Assembly (NCBI GenBank): GCA_946625575.1
Contig: CAMOTD010000002.1
Span: 2,507-66,506, forward strand
Source of the DNA: an uncultured Clostridia bacterium
GTDB taxonomy: Bacteria > Bacillota > Clostridia > Christensenellales > CAG-138
Direction of reading: 5' to 3'
DNA: 64,000 nucleotides
Part shown: positions 1-11,061 of the stretch, piece after piece
How positions within the stretch are numbered: the first letter of the stretch is position 1
Layout of the letters: the number at the start of each line of letters is the position of its first letter
The notes under the pieces: model-generated
Databases searched by the model: none
What the model saw: only the letters and a program-made list of their open reading frames with translations
What the model was told of the DNA's origin: nothing
Made by a program: the position numbers and the translations under genes

Positions 1-659
1 TCGATGTGAACGCTCCAAACGGTCTCGTCTCCGTCTCGTTTTTCGACGTCCGAGGACATTGCTTCATGGGAATTGTCGTCGAACTCATGGTTTAAACAGT
101 ACGTTCCAATAGTATCATCTTCGTTCCACGGATACACTTTTAACCCGTTGAACCATGCTATCCTGTACTCCAGCCAAGCCGCCTCGACTTCCTCCTTCGA
201 CCTCAAATCGGCCGAAAGCTCATAACCCGGCACGCTGTTTGTCACAAAACTTTGCGCTATGACCTCGGCAGTCTTGCCGTAGGTGAAGCTCTCGCTCGTG
301 ATATCGCGGTAGACCGCCTTTATCTCGCCCCGCGTAAGCCCGGAGGCGTCAAGCCCGTTCTCCATGAAAAACTCCTTTGCGGCGTTATACTCCTTGACCT
401 CGGCTGCGTAAGCGTACGTTCCGACGCCGAGAGCGATAATGACCGCAATGCAAGCGGCGATCGCCCAGAACGCCTTCCTCGGAAGACGTTTGCGCTTTGA
501 GCGTTCTTCCTTCTTACCGAAGAGCCTTTCGCCCACTTTTGCGTTTATCCTTGCGGACGACACTTCGTCCGATCTCTCCTCCACGCCGTCAAGGAGCGCA
601 TCGAGCTCCTCCGGCGTCAGTTCATCCATGATATCCGTGAATCTCTTTTCCATTTTCAT
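1..659 (-). CDS. anti-sigma factor, single-pass membrane protein (C-terminus runs off the window edge)
   Basis: Own minus-strand translation from ATG at 659 (or 653): M(KM)EKRFTDIMDELTPEELDALL...KRKRLPRKAFWAIAACIAVIIALGVGTYAYAA (one TM helix), then an extracytoplasmic part. The frame is open to position 1, which is why it is absent from the ORF track. Its start overlaps the stop of the upstream ECF sigma gene (ATGA). Confidence 0.6.
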   Translation of the reverse strand, partial: MKMEKRFTDIMDELTPEELDALLDGVEERSDEVSSARINAKVGERLFGKKEERSKRKRLPRKAFWAIAACIAVIIALGVGTYAYAAEVKEYNAAKEFFMENGLDASGLTRGEIKAVYRDITSESFTYGKTAEVIAQSFVTNSVPGYELSADLRSKEEVEAAWLEYRIAWFNGLKVYPWNEDDTIGTYCLNHEFDDNSHEAMSSDVEKRDGDETVWSVHI

Positions 660-1207
660 TCTCCTCCTATACTGTCTTTGAGCCTTGCAACCGCCCTGTG
701 CGTCCTCACGTCGACGTTTGAAACAGTCATATCGAGCCTTTGGGCGATCGTTTTTGAGCTTTGTCCCAGATAGTACTTCCTGATGATAATCTCCCTGTCC
801 GGTTCGCCGAGGGCTTTCACGGCGTCCAGCACGCGTTTTCTCTCCGCCTTTTCAATGAATTCGCCCTCGAGTGAAAAATCGTCCTCTATCTCGGGGATAT
901 TCGGATCGTCAAGAGACGAAACGGATAAGGACCTTTGCTTCCTAACCCTGTCGAGCGAATTATGCCTCGCTATCGCGCAGAGCCAAGCCTTGATCCCTGC
1001 GCGGTCCGGATCGAATTTGTCAAGATCCATATAGAACTCGCTGAACGTATCGGCAACGCATTCATCAACGTCGGCTATATCAAACGCACCGGGGAAAAGC
1101 CTTCCGCGCACAACGGCGTAAACAAGACCGGAATACCGTTCGATGAGCTCCCTCATTCCCCGTTCCGGATCCTGTTTCAGCTTTTTCAGCAGTTTTCTGT
1201 CCTGCAT
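656..1207 (-). CDS. RNA polymerase sigma factor, ECF (sigma-70 group 4) family
   Basis: 183-aa ORF. Region-2-like YSGLVYAVVRGRL...DECVADTFSEFY and region-4 HTH YYLGQSSKTIAQRLDMTVSNVDVRTHRAVARLK. Translationally coupled to the downstream membrane anti-sigma candidate. Confidence 0.9.
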   Translation of the reverse strand: MQDRKLLKKLKQDPERGMRELIERYSGLVYAVVRGRLFPGAFDIADVDECVADTFSEFYMDLDKFDPDRAGIKAWLCAIARHNSLDRVRKQRSLSVSSLDDPNIPEIEDDFSLEGEFIEKAERKRVLDAVKALGEPDREIIIRKYYLGQSSKTIAQRLDMTVSNVDVRTHRAVARLKDSIGGE

Positions 1208-1318
1208 GGGTTTTTTACCTCCCGTATGCCTTGAATCGATTCACAGATCAATGCGTCAAATCAAGCTAAATCTTACACCATTCAGCAAAAAAATCAACTT
1301 AGTATCGTATATTTTTTA

Positions 1319-1347
1319 TTGACAAATATGTGTTTTTTGTTTATAAT
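1319..1347 (+). promoter_or_regulatory. sigma-A type promoter for carD (TTGACA-17 nt-TATAAT)
   Basis: Perfect consensus hexamers read directly: TTGACA at 1319-1324, TATAAT at 1342-1347, 17-nt spacer, about 85 nt upstream of the carD start. Confidence 0.55.
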
Positions 1348-1431
1348 AGCAGTTGGGGGAGTAATTGCATAAGCATTGGTCTCCGTCAAATTGTCAGCCA
1401 TCGATCGAACATTTTTTATTGGAGGGATACC

Positions 1432-1896
1432 TTGTTTTCCGTCGGTGATCTAATTTGTTACCCCATGCACGGGGTCGGAACAGTTGAGGGCATCGTTACC
1501 CAAACCGTTCTCGGGAAAACGGCCGAGTATTATTCGCTTCGCTTCATTGACGGGAAGATGACGGCGCTCATCCCCGTTGCCACGGCGGAGTCGGTCGGTC
1601 TTAGGCAGCTGATCTGCAAAAACGAATGTGCGGACGTGATCTCGTACATGGCCAAGCCGGGCGAGCGCGGAAGCGACAACTGGAATCAGCGTTACCGTGA
1701 AAATATGGAAAAGATGCGTTCCGGCAGCATTTACGATGTTGCAGACGTTGTAAAGTGTCTCCGCGTGCGTGAAGCCGAAAAGGGGCTTTCCGCAGGCGAA
1801 CGCAAGATGCTCGCGACCGCAAAGATGATCATCACGGGCGAGCTTGCCACCGTCCTCAACAGGGATCAGGAAGATATCGAACGCGAAATCGGCTGA
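1432..1896 (+). CDS. carD: CarD/CdnL family transcriptional regulator
   Basis: FSVGDLICYPMHGVGTVEGI...AEYYSLRF...IPV and C-terminal NWNQRYRENMEKMRSGS...VADVVKCL match the CarD_CdnL_TRCF domain pattern. TTG start at 1432 is preferred over the upstream ATG (1330) because GGAGGG sits 6 nt upstream. Confidence 0.85.
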   Translation: MFSVGDLICYPMHGVGTVEGIVTQTVLGKTAEYYSLRFIDGKMTALIPVATAESVGLRQLICKNECADVISYMAKPGERGSDNWNQRYRENMEKMRSGSIYDVADVVKCLRVREAEKGLSAGERKMLATAKMIITGELATVLNRDQEDIEREIG

Positions 1897-1926
1897 CGGG
1901 AAATCCATGCTGAAAGGAGTGTAGTC

Positions 1927-3021
1927 TTGAGTAAAAAAATCGGTCGTTTCTTTATTACCCTTTTCGGACTCATGCTTGGGTTCGGTCTTGTGCTTCTGGT
2001 CTTCAAAAACAAGGGAGACCTCGGAATAGCTTCTTATCTCGATTCGCTCAGATCCTGGGTCCGCATTCTGATCTACGCCGCAAGCACCGTTTTATTTGGC
2101 ATTATTTTTTTCTTTTTATCACCTGCTATTATAAACGGCGTCGTCAAAATGATCCGAAAGATCGAAAAGCGTACGTCCGAGATGTCAATGGGACAGATCT
2201 TCGTCGGAGTGATCGGTCTCCTTATCGGTCTGCTCATAGCCGTGCTTTTGAGCTTGCTTGTTCAGAAGATCCCGTTTAAGACCGTCGTCATCCTCATTGA
2301 CGTGATACTGTTCATTTCGCTTGCCTATTTGGGATTCAAGATCCCCACGAGCAGGATAAAGGAATTCAACCTTCCCAACTGGTTCAAAAAAAGCTCGGAT
2401 AATCAAGCGGATATTTCAGTCAAAGCAAAACCGAAGCTCCTCGATACCTCCGCCATAATCGACGGAAGGTTTTTCGACGTATACAGGACGGGAGTTATTG
2501 AAGGAAACATCGTCGTTCCCCAATTCGTGCTTGATGAGCTGAGGCATATCGCGGACAGCGCAGACCCCCTGAAGCGCGCACGCGGACGCCGCGGACTCGA
2601 CGCGATCAACGAACTGCAGGAGTCGATCCCCGAAAAGGTTATCGTCAGCACGACGGACTATCCCGAGCTTGACGAGGTCGATACGAAGCTCCTCCGCCTC
2701 TCCGGAGACATGGGCGGCATCGTCGTAACGAATGATTATAACCTCGGAAAAGTCGCGCAGGTGCAGTCCGTTCCGGTGTTCAACATAAACGATCTCGCCA
2801 ATGCGCTGAGGATCAACGTTGTCGCCGGCGAAGTGGTTGAGCTTACCGTCGTTAAGGAAGGCAAGGAACACGGTCAGGGCGTCGCCTATTTCGACGACGG
2901 CACAATGGTCGTTGTCGACGGAGCGGCAAAGCTCGTCGGCAAAACGATCCCCGCAACCGTCACGAGCGTCCTCCAGACTTCCGCCGGAAGAATGGTTTTC
3001 GCAAAAGCGGAAGTGGAATAA
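1927..3021 (+). CDS. yacL: PIN/TRAM domain-containing membrane protein (YacL-like)
   Basis: N-terminal TM helices, a PIN-like core (LLDTSAIIDGR...VPQFVLDELRHIAD...VVTNDYNLGKVA) and a C-terminal TRAM-like beta domain. Lies immediately after carD, as in many Firmicutes. Confidence 0.8.
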   Translation: MSKKIGRFFITLFGLMLGFGLVLLVFKNKGDLGIASYLDSLRSWVRILIYAASTVLFGIIFFFLSPAIINGVVKMIRKIEKRTSEMSMGQIFVGVIGLLIGLLIAVLLSLLVQKIPFKTVVILIDVILFISLAYLGFKIPTSRIKEFNLPNWFKKSSDNQADISVKAKPKLLDTSAIIDGRFFDVYRTGVIEGNIVVPQFVLDELRHIADSADPLKRARGRRGLDAINELQESIPEKVIVSTTDYPELDEVDTKLLRLSGDMGGIVVTNDYNLGKVAQVQSVPVFNINDLANALRINVVAGEVVELTVVKEGKEHGQGVAYFDDGTMVVVDGAAKLVGKTIPATVTSVLQTSAGRMVFAKAEVE

Positions 3022-3032
3022 AGAGTTAATGG

Positions 3033-3066
3033 AACAGCACAGGCTGAATGCCTGTGTTGTTTTTAT
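3033..3066 (+). terminator. intrinsic terminator after the yacL-like gene
   Basis: AACAGCACAGGC-TGAAT-GCCTGTGTTGTT hairpin (one G.T pair) followed by TTTT. Confidence 0.6.
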
Positions 3067-3068
3067 GC

Positions 3069-3165
3069 GTAAAAGAAGGGATTTACAATACCCGCGCAGC
3101 AAGCAGTTTTGGTTTTTAATAGGAGAAGCAGGGATTTACGAACCCCGCGCAGCAAGCTGTTTCCC
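3069..3165 (-). repeat. two tandem degenerate ~45-nt copies of the 3' region (variable arm to acceptor end) of tRNA-Ser(GCT)
   Basis: 3122-3137 GGAGAAGCAGGGATTT is identical to 5663-5678 inside the tRNA and to 5505-5520. The copy continues ACGAACCCCGCGCAGCAAGCTG. A more decayed copy lies at 3069-3113 (AAAAGAAGGGATTTACAATACCCGCGCAGCAAGCAG). Confidence 0.7.
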
Positions 3166-3241
3166 TTCTTATGCTGCTTGCGTTATGCTGCGCTAAGAAT
3201 TTGCTCAGCAAATTCGAGGGTTCAAATTGTTTCGGCGTGAC

Positions 3242-3276
3242 AAAAAGGATACCCGGCTTTGCCGGGTATCCTTTTT
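3242..3276 (-). terminator. intrinsic (bidirectional-looking) terminator downstream of the AIPR gene
   Basis: AAAAAGGATACCCGGC-TTT-GCCGGGTATCCTTTTT: perfect 11-bp GC-rich stem flanked by an A-run and a T-run. Confidence 0.7.
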
Positions 3277-3367
3277 GTGGCTAAAAATTACTATTTCAAC
3301 GAAAGTGAATAATCGTTTACAGTGGTTATTATTTGATGGGCTATGTGCATTATTCAGATATTGATGT

Positions 3368-5212
3368 TCACATCCCTATATCATCAAACACATGCATAAA
3401 GTCAGCTTTTATACGAGTCCACTGCGACCTAAGCGTATTATAATAGTTCTTGTCGCGCTTTAAATAGTTAGTGGGCGTCAGCGTGTTATCGTAGTTGGCC
3501 TCAAAATGGTAACCCGTTATGCCTGCTTCGATTATAATAGTGAACAAGCGCTTAAGAACACCGTCATATCTGTCCTTATCACTGAAGATTTGCGGAGCAA
3601 TGAAGTACTGCAAATTCCCGAGTTCACGAAAAACATCATAAAGGGAATCGACGGCTGTTTCGATATTCGATCGACTGTTCAGCAGGAGAATAAGGTCTTG
3701 TTCCGTAAAGTTGCCTTGCCTGAATCGTGCGGCAAATGCGACGAACGCGATGCAGATGGTGCGCGCATTGTGCGCAAAAGAAATCCTCGTACCCGAATCC
3801 GGATCGGATTCGTTTTCCCTATCAAACTCTCTTTGGAAAACATTCCTGAAATAGTAATCAATGTATAGGAGTTCTTTGCAAAGCTTCGCGATCTGCGCCT
3901 GATTTCCATTGAAAACGGGCTCATAATACTTTGCATCATAAAGCGCGGAGGGCTTGTTTCTGCTTTTGCCGGGAAGCTGGAAAATGCCCGACAAGCAGAG
4001 CTTTCCGATTTCAACCAAGTCTGTATTCATCCAAGGACTCCTATATTGCGAGGGAACGCTTTCGCCGCGCTTTGTCTGATAGAAAATACCTTGCTGCCGC
4101 ATCTCGTTGGCAAACCTGACCTGCTCGGGAGAGTTTGCTTTTAAATCAACAGATTTGATTGCCTTCTGTGAGTTTGTTGCTTTGGCGATGGAAAGACTGA
4201 AGGCGTTCTTTTCATCCTCGGTTTCGCCCATGATTCTGATGATCTTGCAGGGAAGGAAAAGATCGTGATCGGAGTTAATGCTCGGGCTCTTGTGAAGCAT
4301 ATATGTTGTTTGCCCGCCGTTAACTATGGAGAAATTCCGCAGTTTGACATCCTTACCGTCAATTTCGAAGTCTTCGCAAATGATAGTAAGACCATTGTTC
4401 TTGAGCCAGAATGACGCGGGATCCGTATTGATTGTATCTTTAATAGCATTATCGATTTCGCGCCCTGCGATATGATAACGAAGATTGCGTGCCAACAAAT
4501 TTGTATTATGCTGCGCGTACAGTTGCTTTATCGAATAAGCCGATACATTTACTATAGCAGCATTATCTCCGTAAAGCAGATAATTATCCCGCTCGTCAAT
4601 ATGAACCTTCCCCGATTCAACGGTAGGACGACGTGATTCGGATTCCTTGATCTCCTCCTCAATGTCATTAGCAAATAGAATAGAAAGCTCAATATTGCTT
4701 GCACCAGGAAACTGTTCTCTAAACTTTCTTTCAAGGCGATCATTACGTATTCCGCTTTTCTCTGCGCTGGTATAAAAAACAAAATGAATCTTCGACTCTT
4801 CACCGACTTCGGCGTTAAGTGACAGAAATCTTTGCTGTACGATCGTATTGACTTGTTCATAGTGCCCGCTCGTCATATCTTTATAGAACAGGGCCATCTT
4901 CAGCAATGCATTCTGTACGTCCTCATATGTTATTGTACGGTAATACTTTGATTGACAAATAACAAGATCGGCTCCTTCGGAATTGGGATCACTGAGAAGA
5001 ACATCCACACCGCCGTCATACTGACCATCAACAATAAAGTTGTTTAGGTCGGATTCGTTGAGAACCAAAGCTGGATTCTTATAGAAATTGGATTTTACGC
5101 ACAACGCCGAAAACACATAGTCATCGGATTTGCTTCTCATCGTCGGGTAGGCGTCTTTCATTGCGCGGACTTTGGACGCAATAAAGTCGTATGAAGATAA
5201 GGGTGTAGGCAT
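3368..5212 (-). CDS. AIPR family abortive-infection/phage-resistance protein
   Basis: 614-aa ORF. N-terminal VDGQYDGGVDVLL...ADLVICQSKYY (the D-x-DGG[IV]D ... QSK signature I associate with AIPR N-termini, PD-(D/E)xK-like). Central WLKNNGLTII...FSIVNGGQTTY motif typical of the AIPR domain (Pfam PF10592, from memory). A/T-rich codon usage unlike its neighbours. Confidence 0.8.
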   Translation of the reverse strand: MPTPLSSYDFIASKVRAMKDAYPTMRSKSDDYVFSALCVKSNFYKNPALVLNESDLNNFIVDGQYDGGVDVLLSDPNSEGADLVICQSKYYRTITYEDVQNALLKMALFYKDMTSGHYEQVNTIVQQRFLSLNAEVGEESKIHFVFYTSAEKSGIRNDRLERKFREQFPGASNIELSILFANDIEEEIKESESRRPTVESGKVHIDERDNYLLYGDNAAIVNVSAYSIKQLYAQHNTNLLARNLRYHIAGREIDNAIKDTINTDPASFWLKNNGLTIICEDFEIDGKDVKLRNFSIVNGGQTTYMLHKSPSINSDHDLFLPCKIIRIMGETEDEKNAFSLSIAKATNSQKAIKSVDLKANSPEQVRFANEMRQQGIFYQTKRGESVPSQYRSPWMNTDLVEIGKLCLSGIFQLPGKSRNKPSALYDAKYYEPVFNGNQAQIAKLCKELLYIDYYFRNVFQREFDRENESDPDSGTRISFAHNARTICIAFVAFAARFRQGNFTEQDLILLLNSRSNIETAVDSLYDVFRELGNLQYFIAPQIFSDKDRYDGVLKRLFTIIIEAGITGYHFEANYDNTLTPTNYLKRDKNYYNTLRSQWTRIKADFMHVFDDIGM

Positions 5213-5274
5213 ATAATCCTCCTTCTGTTCAGGGGCTTTGGTATGGAATAATCCATTTCGACACTTCTTAACAA

Positions 5275-5303
5275 ATTATACCAAACGAGTTTGTTGTTTT
5301 CAA
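5275..5303 (-). promoter_or_regulatory. sigma-A type promoter for the AIPR gene (TTGAAA-17-TATAAT)
   Basis: Minus strand reads TTGAAAACAACAAACTCGTTTGGTATAAT, about 60 nt upstream of the AGGAGG RBS and ATG at 5212. Confidence 0.5.
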
Positions 5304-5500
5304 GATCTGAGATATAGCTTATTCTAGAGCATGTAGGATCTTTGTTGGCTTATCAGTTATTTAGACGAAACAATCTAAAACGCAAGTGAAACAAAACTAA
5401 CGGAAGAGCCATCGGGAAAGACAGACAAAAAATCTTATTATATAAAGAAAAATGAACATATAGAGAGATTGCAAGTTTCATTAAAAAAGCAATCTCTTTT

Positions 5501-5615
5501 TGGCGGAGAAGCAGGGATTTGATCTCGGCCGGCGTAACCGGCCTCGGTCAGGCGCGGCTCTGGAGCCACACTGTGGCTCCATTCACTCCCGCGCCCGTTC
5601 AAATCCCTGCTTCTT
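5501..5615 (-). other. 115-nt GC-rich multi-hairpin element derived from the tRNA-Ser(GCT) 3' end (not a tRNA)
   Basis: Minus strand: AAGAAGCAGGGATTTGA...TCAAATCCCTGCTTCTCCGCCA forms a ~15-bp closing stem. It encloses GGCGCGG[..GGAGCCACAGTGTGGCTCC..]CCGCGCC and GGCCGG-TTACG-CCGGCC hairpins. The last 22 nt are identical to the tRNA 3' end including CCA. Confidence 0.6.
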
Positions 5616-5624
5616 ATTAAGACA

Positions 5625-5658
5625 AAATAAATACCACCCCTTTGGGTGGTATTTATTT
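5625..5658 (-). terminator. intrinsic terminator of the tRNA-Ser operon
   Basis: AAATAAATACCACCC-CTTT-GGGTGGTATTTATTT hairpin directly abutting the CCA end of tRNA-Ser(GCT). Confidence 0.65.
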
Positions 5659-5750
5659 TGGCGGAGAAGCAGGGATTTGAACCCTGGCGACCCTTCGCAG
5701 ATCCTACTCCCTTAGCAGGGGAGCCCCTTCGACCTCTTGGGTACTTCTCC
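5659..5750 (-). tRNA. tRNA-Ser (anticodon GCT)
   Basis: 92 nt: GGAGAAG-TA-CCC..GGG, anticodon arm CTCCC-CTGCTAA-GGGAG, long variable arm, T arm CAGGG-TTCAAAT-CCCTG, acceptor CTTCTCC, encoded GCCA. Confidence 0.92.
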
Positions 5751-5756
5751 ATATAT

Positions 5757-5846
<90 letters not shown>

Positions 5847-5894
5847 ACGCCGAGCGACCCGTTAGGGACGACCCTTTTGCTGTGCAACAAACGA

Positions 5895-5923
5895 ATTATA
5901 TCAAAAGCGATTTTAGTTGTCAA
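5895..5923 (-). promoter_or_regulatory. sigma-A promoter of the tRNA-Ser operon (TTGACA-17-TATAAT)
   Basis: Minus strand TTGACAACTAAAATCGCTTTTGATATAAT: perfect consensus, about 45 nt upstream of the tRNA-Ser(TGA) 5' end. Confidence 0.6.
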
Positions 5924-5978
5924 TATCAATTTTATTCCTGCGATTATATAATTTTATTTCTATATTGCTCTAATAATG

Positions 5979-6063: not shown

Positions 6064-6357
6064 ATGCGTTACGTATATCCGATTATTATGGGTTGTTTGG
6101 CGCTGGGAATACTGATCTATGCCGCTGTGATCGCCATCAGCGGGACTACCGATCTTATCCCCCGTCACTATGCCGCAAGGGTCAGAAATAAAAAGATCTA
6201 TGCACGCCGCTTTGCGCTTCTGCTTGTTATCGTTGCGGCGGCGCCGATCCTTTCCGGCGTCATCGGATTATTCAGCGTTCTTGCCGGCATTATAATTCTC
6301 ATAATTGCCCTAGCCGTATGTCTTTACGTCGGGGCGAGGGTATTTACCGGCAAATAA
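6064..6357 (+). CDS. small hydrophobic membrane protein (about 3 TM helices), function unknown
   Basis: 97-aa ORF with a consensus promoter upstream and a terminator downstream. Three hydrophobic stretches. No recognisable family. Confidence 0.6.
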   Translation: MRYVYPIIMGCLALGILIYAAVIAISGTTDLIPRHYAARVRNKKIYARRFALLLVIVAAAPILSGVIGLFSVLAGIIILIIALAVCLYVGARVFTGK

Positions 6358-7828: not shown

Positions 7829-9289
7829 ATGAACTTTAAGATGATAGGGCGAATAATATCGTTTATACTGATCGTGGAATCCGCCTTCATGGTTCCCGGA
7901 ATGCTTTTATGCGCATTCGGCGGGCAGACGCGTTCCGCGGTGGCATTCCTCATCTCCATAGGCATAATTCTTGCCGTTGCCGGGATACTGCAGCTTCTTA
8001 CAAGGAAAGCCATTAAGGGCTTCTACTCGCGCGACGGTCTCGTCTGCGTCGGTCTCTCCTGGCTCACTATGAGCCTCTTCGGAGCGCTTCCCTTCGTTAT
8101 CTCGCGTGAGATACCCAATTACATCGACGCGCTGTTCGAGATCGCTTCCGGCTTCTCCACGACCGGCGCATCCATACTGAACGACGTCGAGGCGCTCTCG
8201 AAGGGCATGCTCCTTTGGCGTAGCACCAGCCATTGGCTCGGCGGTATGGGCGTGCTCGTGTTCCTTCTTGCGGTGGTCCCAATCAGCGGAAGGAACGACG
8301 GCTTTACGATGCATCTGCTGCGCGCGGAAAGCCCCGGTCCGGACGTCGGCAAGCTCGTCCCCAGGATGAAGCAGACCGCGATAATCCTCTACGGGTTATA
8401 CATACTCCTTACCGTTCTTGATTTTATCTTCCTCGTTATCGGCAGGATGCCCGTGTTCGACGCCGTTTGTATAGCGATCGGCACCGCCGGCACGGGAGGT
8501 TTCGGCGTGCTGAATTCGAGCATCGGCGGTTATTCCCCCTACATCCAGGTGGTCTGTACCGTGTTCATGTTCCTGTTCGGAGTTAACTTCACCTGCTATT
8601 ATCTTTTGTTCTGCGGCAAGATCAAAAATGTGCTGAAGGATGAGGAGCTCAGATGGTACCTCGGCATCGCTTCCGTCTGCATAATCGTCATAACGATCTC
8701 GCTTATGATCGCAAAAACATACGCCACATTCGGCGAAACTGTCCGCCATACTGCGTTCCAGGTCGCAAGTCTCCAATCCTCGACCGGTTTCTCGACGACT
8801 GACTTCGACCTGTGGCCGACGCTTCCCAAAGCCATTCTGTTCACACTTATGTTCATCGGCGCGAGCGCCGGTTCAACGGGCGGCGGCTTTAAGATCGGGC
8901 GCGTGCTGCTTATCGCCAAGATAATGCGCAGGAACGTTCGCCAGGTGCTCTATCCGCAGAAGGTGCTCGTCGTGCGTATGAACGGAAGGGTCGTCGACGA
9001 GAACGTCCTTCGCAACACCAACGCGTATCTTTGCGCCTACGTTTTCATTATAATTGCGAGCTTCCTCATAGTTTCGATAGATAATTTCTCCTCGATGACG
9101 AACCTCACCGCCGTTGTTTCATGCTTCAACAACATGGGCCCCGGTCTTGAGCAGATAGGTCCGACGCTGAATTACTCGAATTACAGCGTGCTCTCGAAGC
9201 TCGTGCTGATATTCGATATGCTCGCCGGCAGGCTTGAGATATTCCCGATACTCGTACTGCTTTCGAGGAGCGCCTGGAAACGGAGATAA
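7829..9289 (+). CDS. trkH: TrkH family potassium transporter
   Basis: 486-aa polytopic membrane protein with repeated selectivity-filter-like SGFSTTGAS / GTAGTGGFG / SSTGFSTT / GASAGSTGGGFK segments. Confidence 0.9.
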   Translation: MNFKMIGRIISFILIVESAFMVPGMLLCAFGGQTRSAVAFLISIGIILAVAGILQLLTRKAIKGFYSRDGLVCVGLSWLTMSLFGALPFVISREIPNYIDALFEIASGFSTTGASILNDVEALSKGMLLWRSTSHWLGGMGVLVFLLAVVPISGRNDGFTMHLLRAESPGPDVGKLVPRMKQTAIILYGLYILLTVLDFIFLVIGRMPVFDAVCIAIGTAGTGGFGVLNSSIGGYSPYIQVVCTVFMFLFGVNFTCYYLLFCGKIKNVLKDEELRWYLGIASVCIIVITISLMIAKTYATFGETVRHTAFQVASLQSSTGFSTTDFDLWPTLPKAILFTLMFIGASAGSTGGGFKIGRVLLIAKIMRRNVRQVLYPQKVLVVRMNGRVVDENVLRNTNAYLCAYVFIIIASFLIVSIDNFSSMTNLTAVVSCFNNMGPGLEQIGPTLNYSNYSVLSKLVLIFDMLAGRLEIFPILVLLSRSAWKRR

Positions 9290-9304
9290 TAAAAAGCCCG
9301 TAAT

Positions 9305-9334
9305 AAAAAAGCCTGTATGAACACAGGCTTTTTT
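9305..9334. terminator. bidirectional intrinsic terminator between convergent trkH and the Gx-transporter gene
   Basis: AAAAAAGCCTGT-ATGAA-CACAGGCTTTTTT. Confidence 0.7.
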
Positions 9335-9836
9335 ATTTGCCGAGCTTCGGATCTATCTTTGCGACGAGCACGGCGCCGACCGCGCCGACCGCGGCGCCCG
9401 TAAGCACGCCGCTTATTATCAGCGGAGGCAGCCAGAAAGCGATCTGGGCAGTATCGGTCAGTATTATCGCCATCAATATCTGCCCGACGTTATGAAATAC
9501 GGCGCCTATGACGCTTATTCCGACGGGCGAAAACGCCTTTATCCTCTTTCCTCCCGTCATGACCAGCATAGAAAGGATAGCGCCCGCCGCCGAATATGCA
9601 AGCGACGCGGCGTTCCCGAACAGCAGCGCCGTGAGCAGCACGCGTATCAGGCTGACGGGAGCCGCATAGCGCCAATCAAACTTCATAAGCAGAAATACTG
9701 CGACAAGATTGGCTAAACCGAGCTTTACTCCGGGAACGGCGAATGGAACGGGGATAAGCGTCTCAACGTATGAAAGCACCATCGCTGCAGCCGTGCATAC
9801 GCCGAGGAGCGTTATTGTTTTTGCGCTTCTGTTCAT
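9333..9836 (-). CDS. Gx transporter family protein (formerly annotated as heptaprenyl diphosphate synthase component I)
   Basis: 167-aa, 5-TM protein (LSYVETLIPVPFAVPGVKLGLANLV...FHNVGQIL). Family call from memory of PF07456-type sequences and from the usual pairing with a NusG-domain-II gene. Confidence 0.65.
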   Translation of the reverse strand: MNRSAKTITLLGVCTAAAMVLSYVETLIPVPFAVPGVKLGLANLVAVFLLMKFDWRYAAPVSLIRVLLTALLFGNAASLAYSAAGAILSMLVMTGGKRIKAFSPVGISVIGAVFHNVGQILMAIILTDTAQIAFWLPPLIISGVLTGAAVGAVGAVLVAKIDPKLGK

Positions 9837-10201
9837 AGCTCGGCGTCCACCCCGCTTCCGCCTTCAATACGGATTATCAGCTTGTGCGGAAGACAGATGA
9901 TCGTCTGCCCCGCCTTTGAAACTGGTCTCTGCTTAACGCAAAGCTTATCAGGACAATCCGCCGATTCAACGCTCGCTTTACCGTCCTTGATGACGAGAAC
10001 GTTCATATGACCGCCCTCCGAAGGAATTTCCGCGCGGATATCGGTATCGAGCGGATAGCTTGCAACGACCCTGCCGTTCAGCTCAACTACGGCGGTTTTC
10101 CCTTCACGCGAGGCAAGCCTTATAACGCCCCATACGGCGAATGCCGCCGCAAGAAGCGCCGCAAGCAGAATTATGTCGTTCCTCAGCTTCCTTTTATCCA
10201 T
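9833..10201 (-). CDS. NusG domain II-containing membrane-anchored protein
   Basis: 122 aa. N-terminal TM anchor, then VELNGRVVASYPLDTD...VIKDGKASVESADCPDKLCVKQRPVSKAGQTIICLPHKL, matching the NusG_II (ex-DUF1312) pattern with C-x3-C. Confidence 0.65.
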   Translation of the reverse strand: MDKRKLRNDIILLAALLAAAFAVWGVIRLASREGKTAVVELNGRVVASYPLDTDIRAEIPSEGGHMNVLVIKDGKASVESADCPDKLCVKQRPVSKAGQTIICLPHKLIIRIEGGSGVDAEL

Positions 10202-10204
10202 CCG

Positions 10205-10238
10205 AAAAGATAAAGCTGCCCCGTGTACAGGGCAGCTT
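10205..10238 (-). terminator. hairpin (possible partial terminator) between rnfB and the NusG-II gene
   Basis: AAGCTGCCC-N8-GGGCAGCTT, followed on the minus strand by TATCTTTT. Confidence 0.4.
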
Positions 10239-10245
10239 CAAAACG

Positions 10246-11061
10246 TTAAAACCTGTGACTGCCGGAGAAATCGGCGAATTTGATCGCCTTTACCGGGCAC
10301 TTCTCGGCGCATTTGCCGCAGCTTATGCACTTATCGTAATCGATGACGGCAAGATTGTTCTCGAGCCTGATCGCGCCCTGTTCGCAGTTTCTCACACAAA
10401 GACCGCAGCCGAGACAGCCGGCGGTGCATTTGCCGCGAACGACAGCGCCCTTCTCATGATTTGAACAAACGACGACGACCCTTCTTACGTCCGGGAAGAG
10501 CTCAATAAGATGATTCGGGCAGGTCTTAGCGCACATACCGCAACCGATGCATTTCCTCGTATCGACGTGCGCTATGCCGTTTTCGATGCAGATGGCGTCC
10601 TGCGGGCAGGCGCGCTGACAATCGCCGAGACCTATACATCCCTGAGTGCACATCCTGGAGCCGCCGTAAAGCATCTGGGCGGCAGCGCAGGACTCTATGC
10701 CTTCATACGTGTACCTTTCCTTACGGTTAAAGCAATCGCCGCTGCAATGGACGAATGCGACCTGTTCGATCACGTCCTCCGCCTCTATGCCAAGCACGTC
10801 GGCGATCTTTTTGGCGACCGCGTCGGCGCCGGGGACGCATAGATTCGCTTTGGTACCGGGGACCTGGGCAAGGGCTTTCGCGTAACCGTCGCAGCCTGTA
10901 AAACCGCAGGCGCCGCAGTTTGCCCCGGGAAGGCACTCGCGCACCTTGACCTCCGTCTCGTTAACGGGCACGCTCATGAAATGCGAAGCGACGGCAAGCG
11001 CAGCCGCGCATACGACGCCGATAACGGTAACTACAATTATCGCTAATAATATCGGACTCAT
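10246..11061 (-). CDS. rnfB: Rnf electron transport complex subunit B (polyferredoxin)
   Basis: MSPILLAIIVVTVIG TM anchor, CLPGANCGACGFTGC motif, then several CxxCxxCxxxCP ferredoxin motifs. Start set at ATG 11061; the 54-codon extension in the ORF track overlaps rnfA and is Arg-rich nonsense. Confidence 0.9.
   Translation of the reverse strand: MSPILLAIIVVTVIGVVCAAALAVASHFMSVPVNETEVKVRECLPGANCGACGFTGCDGYAKALAQVPGTKANLCVPGADAVAKKIADVLGIEAEDVIEQVAFVHCSGDCFNRKERYTYEGIESCAAAQMLYGGSRMCTQGCIGLGDCQRACPQDAICIENGIAHVDTRKCIGCGMCAKTCPNHLIELFPDVRRVVVVCSNHEKGAVVRGKCTAGCLGCGLCVRNCEQGAIRLENNLAVIDYDKCISCGKCAEKCPVKAIKFADFSGSHRF

Follow-up and report, generated by a model that had tools for sequence, protein, structure and literature searches.

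A solitary AbiU/AIPR-family gene at a tRNA-Ser hotspot of an uncultured Clostridia bacterium: a candidate single-gene anti-phage determinant

The window, i.e. the whole stretch of 64,000 nucleotides analysed here (contig CAMOTD010000002.1 from an uncultured Clostridia bacterium), carries on its reverse strand an intact open reading frame (ORF) with an ATG start, coding for a protein of 614 amino acids (aa) that is a distant member of the AbiU (AbiU1/AIPR) family (Table 1). An earlier note on this DNA had already assigned the protein to AIPR, which was borne out by the profile searches. Pfam AIPR (PF10592) scored 112.4 bits against a gathering cutoff of 25 (E=4.6e-32), the match spanning profile positions 1-159 of 308 only, and the PADLOC AbiU model PDLC02357 was matched over nearly its full length (E=6.4e-36, 122.6 bits; aa 28-540 on profile positions 19-523 of 537, i.e. 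94% of the profile). AIPR is known from the literature as the AbiU1 family; AbiU has a model of its own in PADLOC and is treated in the literature as a single-gene system. The family is thus already known as single-gene anti-phage and the window gene is no new kind of system.

Homologues were numerous. A word-indexed search returned 1,270 matches, the best 120 of which were full length and 64-93% identical, and an exhaustive search collected 4,548 representatives (50% clustering), many of them about 600 aa long and 29-55% identical across residues 6-612. Conservation counts given below refer to an alignment of 48 diverse full-length members (25-74% identity), all of which matched Pfam AIPR. 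Residues N243, R245, F268, W269, NNG (272-274), S295, N298, G299, Q301, T302, N347, Q349 and K350 were invariant in this alignment. More distant relatives were encountered on plasmids of Enterococcus, Staphylococcus, Klebsiella and others, as well as in P2-like and other temperate phages.

According to a 2026 review, AbiU dates from 2001, when it was first reported from Lactococcus. In the work of Dai et al. 2001, as this review relates it, AbiU1 by itself was sufficient for phage resistance, AbiU2 only lowered the activity and phage transcription was delayed; the founding member is classed in the review as abortive infection. FokI is named there as the nuclease to which an AlphaFold model of AbiU1 bears a resemblance, and a structural paper published in Nature Communications in 2026 places AbiU-1 within a PD-(D/E)xK defence clade. 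A 2026 preprint quotes AbiU in about 4% of RefSeq bacterial genomes. On a lactococcal plasmid locus, a 589-aa AIPR protein, scoring 590 bits on the PADLOC AbiU model, is followed by a 341-aa ORF. Profile comparison by hhalign related the window family to the 589-aa protein over aa 236-509 with a probability of 99.3% (E=1.1e-20). The N-terminus of the latter contains DGGCD...IIIQSK, i.e. the same DGGxD...QSK motif as in the window family.

The N-terminal part of the window protein is predicted to be a nuclease-like domain. DGQYDGGVDVLL occurs at aa 62-73 and LVICQSKYY at aa 83-91, while NNGLTII and IVNGGQTTY are found at aa 272-278 and 296-304; both motif pairs quoted in the earlier note (aa 62-91 and aa 272-304) are therefore present. 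D62, D66, D70, Q87 and K89 were each conserved in 44-46 of the 48 relatives, the few exceptions lacking all five together, and they were invariant in a set of 34 N-terminal sequences. The D...QxK module can accordingly be described as conserved and nuclease-like, as had been suggested. The residue numbering proposed for it was right for Q87, K89 and D70 and wrong for D67, the acidic residues being D62, D66 and D70.

AlphaFold 2 (AF2) models were made of aa 1-235 alone and of the whole protein, with predicted local distance difference test (pLDDT) scores of 91.7 and 89.9 (mean), respectively. In the former, D70 opens a strand (71-74), Q87 and K89 close another one (83-89) and a long helix (96-114) follows, which fits the arrangement expected for a PD-(D/E)xK core. 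Pfam Mrr_cat was matched by 14 of the 48 relatives (best E 7e-6) and Mrr_cat_2 by 4, all on the motif segment, with three above the gathering score. Foldseek comparison of the N-terminal model with the PDB placed PD-(D/E)xK nucleases (SduA, EcoO109I, HamA, Shedu nuclease domain) at six of the top seven matches, the best being Shedu SduA (E=6.6e-3, probability 0.87), followed by EcoO109I (1.4e-2) and Hachiman HamA (4.1e-2). With the full-length model, the list consisted mostly of long spurious alignments, none below E=1e-3, and sequence searches of the PDB (single protein, full-length profile and N-terminal profile) brought up nothing meaningful. The putative Mrr-type nuclease assignment is thus well supported by sequence and weakly by fold search. 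A HEPN domain, mentioned for AIPR proteins in an early paper, was also considered; this idea was dropped because no HEPN family was matched among the 48 relatives at E<=0.1.

In the central AIPR core, N272, N273 and G274 of motif NNG and N298, G299, Q301 and T302 of motif NGGQT were found in 48/48 sequences. Foldseek search of the viral library BFVD with the full model retrieved a phage AIPR protein (3.7e-12), HNH-domain proteins (1.4e-3 and 3.3e-2), DndB-family ("DNA-sulfur modification-associated") proteins (6.5e-3 and 3.7e-2) and, weakly, a ParB/Spo0J-like protein (E 0.099). No fold of ParB, DndB or DUF262 type appeared in the top 50 of the full-length Foldseek search of the PDB, nor was any ParBc, DUF262 or DndB sequence match recorded in the 48 relatives. 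Published work places AbiU1/AIPR in the ParB superfamily; a ParB/DndB-like nature of the central domain would agree with this literature, but the BFVD matches are marginal. The C-terminal 215 residues, all-helical in the model, had no family match of their own. Their alignment with the AbiU-type protein of Lactococcus extends to about aa 532.

Variation was observed around this core. One AIPR subgroup, whose members are about 700 aa long (P0184, P0186, P0188, P0196, P0215, P0232 and P0265), keeps the N-terminal fold and has lost the D...QxK residues. A C-terminal HRDC domain was found in 8 of the 10 members sampled, one of which also displayed DUF4357. Loss of catalytic residues together with gain of HRDC indicates that output modules differ within the family while the AIPR core stays constant. 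Both of the top viral fold matches (BFVD A0A8S5R496 and A0A8S5R4D7) come from one phage, Podoviridae sp. ct8nN1, where they correspond to a 371-aa AIPR protein and a 223-aa uncharacterised protein. This pair may be a split version of the same architecture.

The window gene is under purifying selection. The ratio of nonsynonymous to synonymous substitution rates (dN/dS) was 0.079 with respect to the closest copy (L096; 93.5% aa identity), in which about 100 bp upstream of the ATG were conserved as well. Promoter-like sites as a whole were not enriched in the region (7 observed vs 6.5 expected from shuffles). From the promoter-to-terminator unit announced in the earlier note, the promoter-like site was recovered, whereas the terminator-like hairpin turned out to be backbone, not part of the acquired DNA, since it is kept in L008, a conspecific metagenome-assembled genome (MAG) that lacks the gene.

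The gene was horizontally acquired as cargo at a tRNA-Ser(GCT) hotspot. Its GC content (43.7%) and that of the surrounding cassette (about 42-44%) are lower than that of the window (54.1%). L008 is 98-99% identical to the window over positions 1-3031, and there positions 3127-3282 directly abut positions 5494-5689 at a clean junction, which means that 3283-5493 is precisely absent. The cassette is flanked by an imperfect repeat of 11-13 nt (CTTTTTGTGGC / CTTTTTGGCGG), the reverse complement of a tRNA-3'-end-like GCCA(C)AAAAAG. Exactly three copies of a 16-nt core of the tRNA-Ser(GCT) 3' end (GGAGAAGCAGGGATTT) occur in the 64 kb, all at islet edges: in the tRNA itself, at 5505-5520 and at 3122-3137. 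The description of the locus as a tRNA-linked islet is thus upheld by tRNA-3'-end repeats, low GC and absence from L008. No integrase was found in the islet.

Nine related MAGs displayed PIN/TRAM, tRNA-Ser(TGA), tRNA-Ser(GCT) and TrkA genes co-oriented on one strand, with the AIPR gene absent from the locus. Four of them had no insert and others carried unrelated cargo after the tRNA. In L016, a tyrosine integrase gene lies 140 bp from the tRNA-Ser(GCT) 3' end (7831-9210, reverse strand), followed by a sigma-like gene and unknown genes; the same site thus seems to be occupied there by an integrative element that is still intact. Varied cargo, together with this integrase, indicates that the site is a genuine integration hotspot, and what the window holds is either minimal cargo or a remnant without integrase. 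The gene copies did not reveal a mobile cassette whose ends are conserved, DNA similarity stopping at the ORF (or, for the closest copy, at the ORF plus about 100 bp of promoter). Likewise, a crude search of L001, L092 and L093 for stretches of the tRNA 3' end repeated exactly over 11 nt or more remained negative.

Further traces were recorded around the tRNA genes. Degenerate copies of the tRNA-Ser(GCT) 3' end occur at 3059-3164, 5498-5531 and 5597-5614, one of them inverted, and arrays of the same repeat lie downstream of the tRNA in the related MAGs L011 and L015; these copies look like footprints of repeated integration. A perfect 17-bp hairpin (5623-5660) immediately after tRNA-Ser(GCT) is probably the terminator of the tRNA operon. 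The segment comprising the hotspot cargo, both tRNA-Ser genes and their promoter (about 3032-5954) is inverted with respect to the nine related rumen MAGs, an inversion common to the window and L008. In L008, a different segment of 1.5 kb (9108-10613) replaces window positions 3032-3126; its gene (9181-10497, reverse strand) codes for a 438-aa protein that passes the membrane several times and was matched by neither Pfam nor PADLOC.

Within 10 kb on either side, the neighbours code for a sigma factor, CarD, a PIN/TRAM (YacL-like) membrane protein, two tRNA-Ser and TrkA/TrkH and, further on the source contig, NusG_II, the Rnf complex, ThrRS and PNP. Neither these nor nearby unannotated genes over this distance matched a PADLOC defence model, and no methyltransferase or restriction gene was present there. 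The AIPR gene is therefore solitary, and the earlier statement that it has no methyltransferase, restriction or toxin partner nearby was confirmed. The PIN/TRAM neighbour was rejected as a toxin partner: it is syntenic with CarD in all relatives without the AIPR gene and has no PADLOC match. A hydrophobic 97-aa ORF (6064-6357, forward strand), called as a gene on the source contig and lying between the tRNA promoter and TrkA, had no family match and was not found in the related MAGs. It was rejected as well, being across two tRNA genes and on the other strand, with no equivalent beside other copies of the AIPR gene. To the left of the window start (L098, 19195-21845), on the far side of ThrRS and at a distance of 7-10 kb from the AIPR gene, there are a gene for a WYL/WCX-domain protein and two genes without annotation (243 and 492 aa); PADLOC matched neither of the two unknowns.

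A solitary arrangement was not peculiar to the window, contrary to what had been assumed. Seven independent contexts of close homologues, the window included, had no neighbour in common. A homologue was found between ComF-like and MreB genes, next to a transposase some 2 kb from a type I restriction-modification (R-M) system (the only context of the seven with R-M nearby), beside a Fic/VbhA pair and an orphan methyltransferase, adjoining a tyrosine integrase (two contexts, L090 and L092), or with tRNA-Met genes on one side and an unknown gene on the other. In four of the seven contexts, the AIPR gene is located shortly downstream of tRNA genes. Outside the window, such tRNA genes are those for Val (L001 9062-9138), Met (L093 4256-4411) and Ala, the last with an integrase (L092 2780-2855), which suggests a recurrent link of this AIPR subfamily to tRNA-targeting elements.

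Table 1. Features of the AbiU/AIPR locus (window positions; - reverse strand; a dot marks features given without strand).
Feature	Position	Strand	Basis
AbiU/AIPR-family gene, 614 aa, intact	3368..5212	-	ORF, Pfam, PADLOC, hhalign, dN/dS
Mrr-like PD-(D/E)xK nuclease-like domain, about aa 1-195	4628..5212	-	AF2 model, Mrr_cat matches of relatives, Foldseek
Putative catalytic motif D62-x3-D66-GGV-D70 ... Q87-S-K89	4946..5029	-	Conservation and AF2 strands
Central AIPR core, aa 240-389, with invariant NNG (272-274) and NGGQT (298-302)	4046..4495	-	Pfam AIPR, invariant columns, Foldseek BFVD
All-helical C-terminal domain, aa 399-614, proposed sensor/regulatory part	3371..4018	-	AF2 secondary structure
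Sigma-70-like promoter TTGAAA-17-TATAAT with upstream TG	5275..5303	-	11/12 match
Ribosome-binding site AAGGAGG, 5 nt 5' of ATG	5218..5224	-	Direct sequence reading
Perfect 18-bp hairpin with A/T tracts, bidirectional terminator-like; backbone	3240..3278	.	Inverted repeat search; 90 nt beyond stop codon
Low-GC cassette of 2.2 kb (promoter and gene)	3283..5493	.	Present in window, absent from conspecific MAG L008
Left copy of imperfect flanking direct repeat, TCCTTTTTGTGGCT	3270..3282	.	Junction alignment
Right copy of imperfect flanking direct repeat, CTCTTTTTGGCGG	5494..5506	.	Junction alignment
tRNA-Ser(GCT), integration target	5659..5750	-	ARAGORN
tRNA-Ser(TGA)	5758..5846	-	ARAGORN
Degenerate tRNA-Ser(GCT) 3'-end copy (pseudo-att)	5498..5531	-	Repeat family D1, 88% identical to true 3' end
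Two tandem 53-nt degenerate tRNA-3'-end-like repeats	3059..3164	-	Repeat families D1 and D2

The interpretation builds on an established family membership, a three-part architecture, intact candidate catalytic residues, purifying selection, a presence/absence polymorphism and a lack of nearby partners. Activity, substrate, trigger and outcome of the window protein are what we infer from there. Our preferred explanation, which we hold to be rather probable, is that of a stand-alone anti-phage protein of the AbiU family in which the N-terminal nuclease acts as effector and the rest of the protein keeps this nuclease off. The Mrr-type PD-(D/E)xK domain would cut DNA. The DndB/ParB-like AIPR core and the helical C-terminus would bind nucleic acid or sense an infection cue, and would hold the nuclease off in uninfected cells; infection would then release it, with the result that phage gene expression would be blocked or delayed. 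This proposed block matches the delayed phage transcription reported for the Lactococcus AbiU. The idea of a self-contained single-gene defence candidate was judged plausible.

Several observations weigh against such an explanation. The window protein itself was not matched by Mrr_cat at E<=1, and Foldseek searches of the PDB with the full-length and N-terminal models gave no match below E=1e-3, with TM-scores of about 0.3. The relationship to the lactococcal AbiU-type protein, as detected by BLASTP (24% identity, E=6e-12), was confined to aa 238-532, i.e. to the central and C-terminal parts, and the N-terminal hidden Markov model (HMM) of the window family failed to detect the lactococcal N-terminus. 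Within N298-G-G-Q-T302, there is no arginine at the position of the one in DGQHR/GxxR, so that nucleotide binding of the ParB type may not apply. Finally, the protection conferred by AbiU is given as weak in the 2026 review's account, with efficiencies of plaquing of 1e-1 to 1e-2.

Direct restriction of a type IV-like kind, which we regard as unlikely, is the main rival. Here, some modification or unusual structure of foreign DNA would be read by the DndB/ParB-like domain, which would thereby license direct cutting by the Mrr-type nuclease, the cell surviving. The N-terminal domain is related to Mrr_cat, Mrr being a modification-dependent enzyme, whereas the lactococcal phages targeted by AbiU are not known to be hypermodified. 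HNH-fused and DndB-family fold matches recall the layout of a ParB-like domain plus nuclease, as in GmrSD, BrxU and SspE, yet the DGQHR-type arginine is absent from NGGQT. Such an enzyme needs no methyltransferase or immunity gene; it fits the solitary arrangement and would explain the lack of a partner equally well. The classification of the founding member as abortive infection with delayed phage transcription, as given in the review, argues in the other direction. A wider version of this idea, likewise regarded as unlikely, would apply to AbiU/AIPR proteins with an intact N-terminal motif. These would be distinct self-contained restriction-like enzymes instead of abortive infection determinants, a DndB/ParB-derived reader (NGGQT replacing DGQHR) licensing the Mrr-type nuclease, and subfamilies without catalytic residues but with HRDC would use a different output.

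There is only a slim chance that the protein depends on a partner, i.e. on an R-M system, an AbiU2-like regulator or a host factor encoded elsewhere, the solitary copy being inert or conditionally active. AIPR genes are frequently linked to R-M systems in the literature, and two close homologues have such genes in their vicinity, namely a type I R-M system at about 2 kb in one case and an orphan methyltransferase in the other; yet no neighbour was conserved in the seven contexts and solitary copies are under strong purifying selection. Multi-gene precedents do exist, since AbiU of Lactococcus comprises a second gene and AIPR proteins of the MzaE type are part of a system of five genes. However, no AbiU2 homologue, sought with the 341-aa lactococcal ORF, was present in the window or in eight context loci, the score for MzaE was 50.7 bits vs a cutoff of 1050, and AbiU1 alone suffices, AbiU2 only reducing the activity, in the review's summary of the 2001 work. 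Very improbable is a gene outside defence (a leftover of island cargo with a housekeeping or DNA-repair role, or no current role), for which the cassette without integrase and its degenerate flanking repeats could be invoked, against a dN/dS of 0.079, an intact promoter and ribosome-binding site, absence at the locus from the conspecific and nine related genomes, and relatives patchily distributed on plasmids, prophages and integrase islands.

The practical value of the window gene is modest. The earlier note had seen in it a new test of whether AIPR acts alone. This question was already answered, since AIPR is the AbiU1 family and AbiU1 alone was reported as sufficient in the work as reviewed. 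With this premise of novelty failing, the earlier interpretation is supported in part only. It was correct in calling the mechanism of the family uncharacterised, the 2026 review listing it as '?' and the 2026 preprint describing the details as unknown. The AbiU mechanism has been unsolved since 2001 and could be approached with whichever family member lends itself to expression and purification, but the window copy is no better suited to such work than lactococcal, enterococcal or enterobacterial ones. The analysis provides a well-supported annotation that extends to many proteins of gut and rumen Clostridia (over 1,200 close matches, with the 4,548 representatives family-wide) and a domain map for AbiU-type proteins with specific residues as mutation targets (D66, D70, Q87, K89, N298 and Q301). 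Since two conspecific genomes differ naturally in having or lacking the cassette, they could moreover serve for ecological or experimental comparison.

The window protein was also compared with known systems. MzaE, from the five-gene MZA system, has the AIPR core in common with it, but only aa 219-367 align, the score remains far below the NCBIfam cutoff (50.7 bits vs 1050) and no MzaA-D genes lie nearby. GmrSD, BrxU and SspE resemble it conceptually by a ParB-like domain and a nuclease in a single polypeptide; in the window protein, however, the domain order is reversed, the putative nuclease is of PD-(D/E)xK and not HNH type, and NGGQT is devoid of the conserved arginine. Parallels were found for the N-terminal domain in Mrr-type nucleases, Shedu SduA and Hachiman HamA, with D...D...QxK on consecutive strands followed by a helix, top fold matches and Mrr_cat in relatives. 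The window protein differs from them by the lack of a direct Pfam match, by weak structural matches (E 6.6e-3 to 1e-1, TM about 0.3) and by fusion to an AIPR core, which is absent from those nucleases.

The lactococcal AbiU also counts among the closest known systems. Identity to it amounts to 24% over aa 238-532 only, and its N-terminus has diverged beyond detection by the HMM of the window family. The window gene, without AbiU2, is chromosomal at a tRNA hotspot of rumen Clostridiales, whereas AbiU is carried by a lactococcal plasmid. The window protein nevertheless matches the AbiU model over nearly its full length, both proteins are similar in size (614 vs 589 aa), agree in domain order and have the DGGxD...QSK motif as well as homologous AIPR core and C-terminal regions, and single-gene action is what the literature reports for AbiU.

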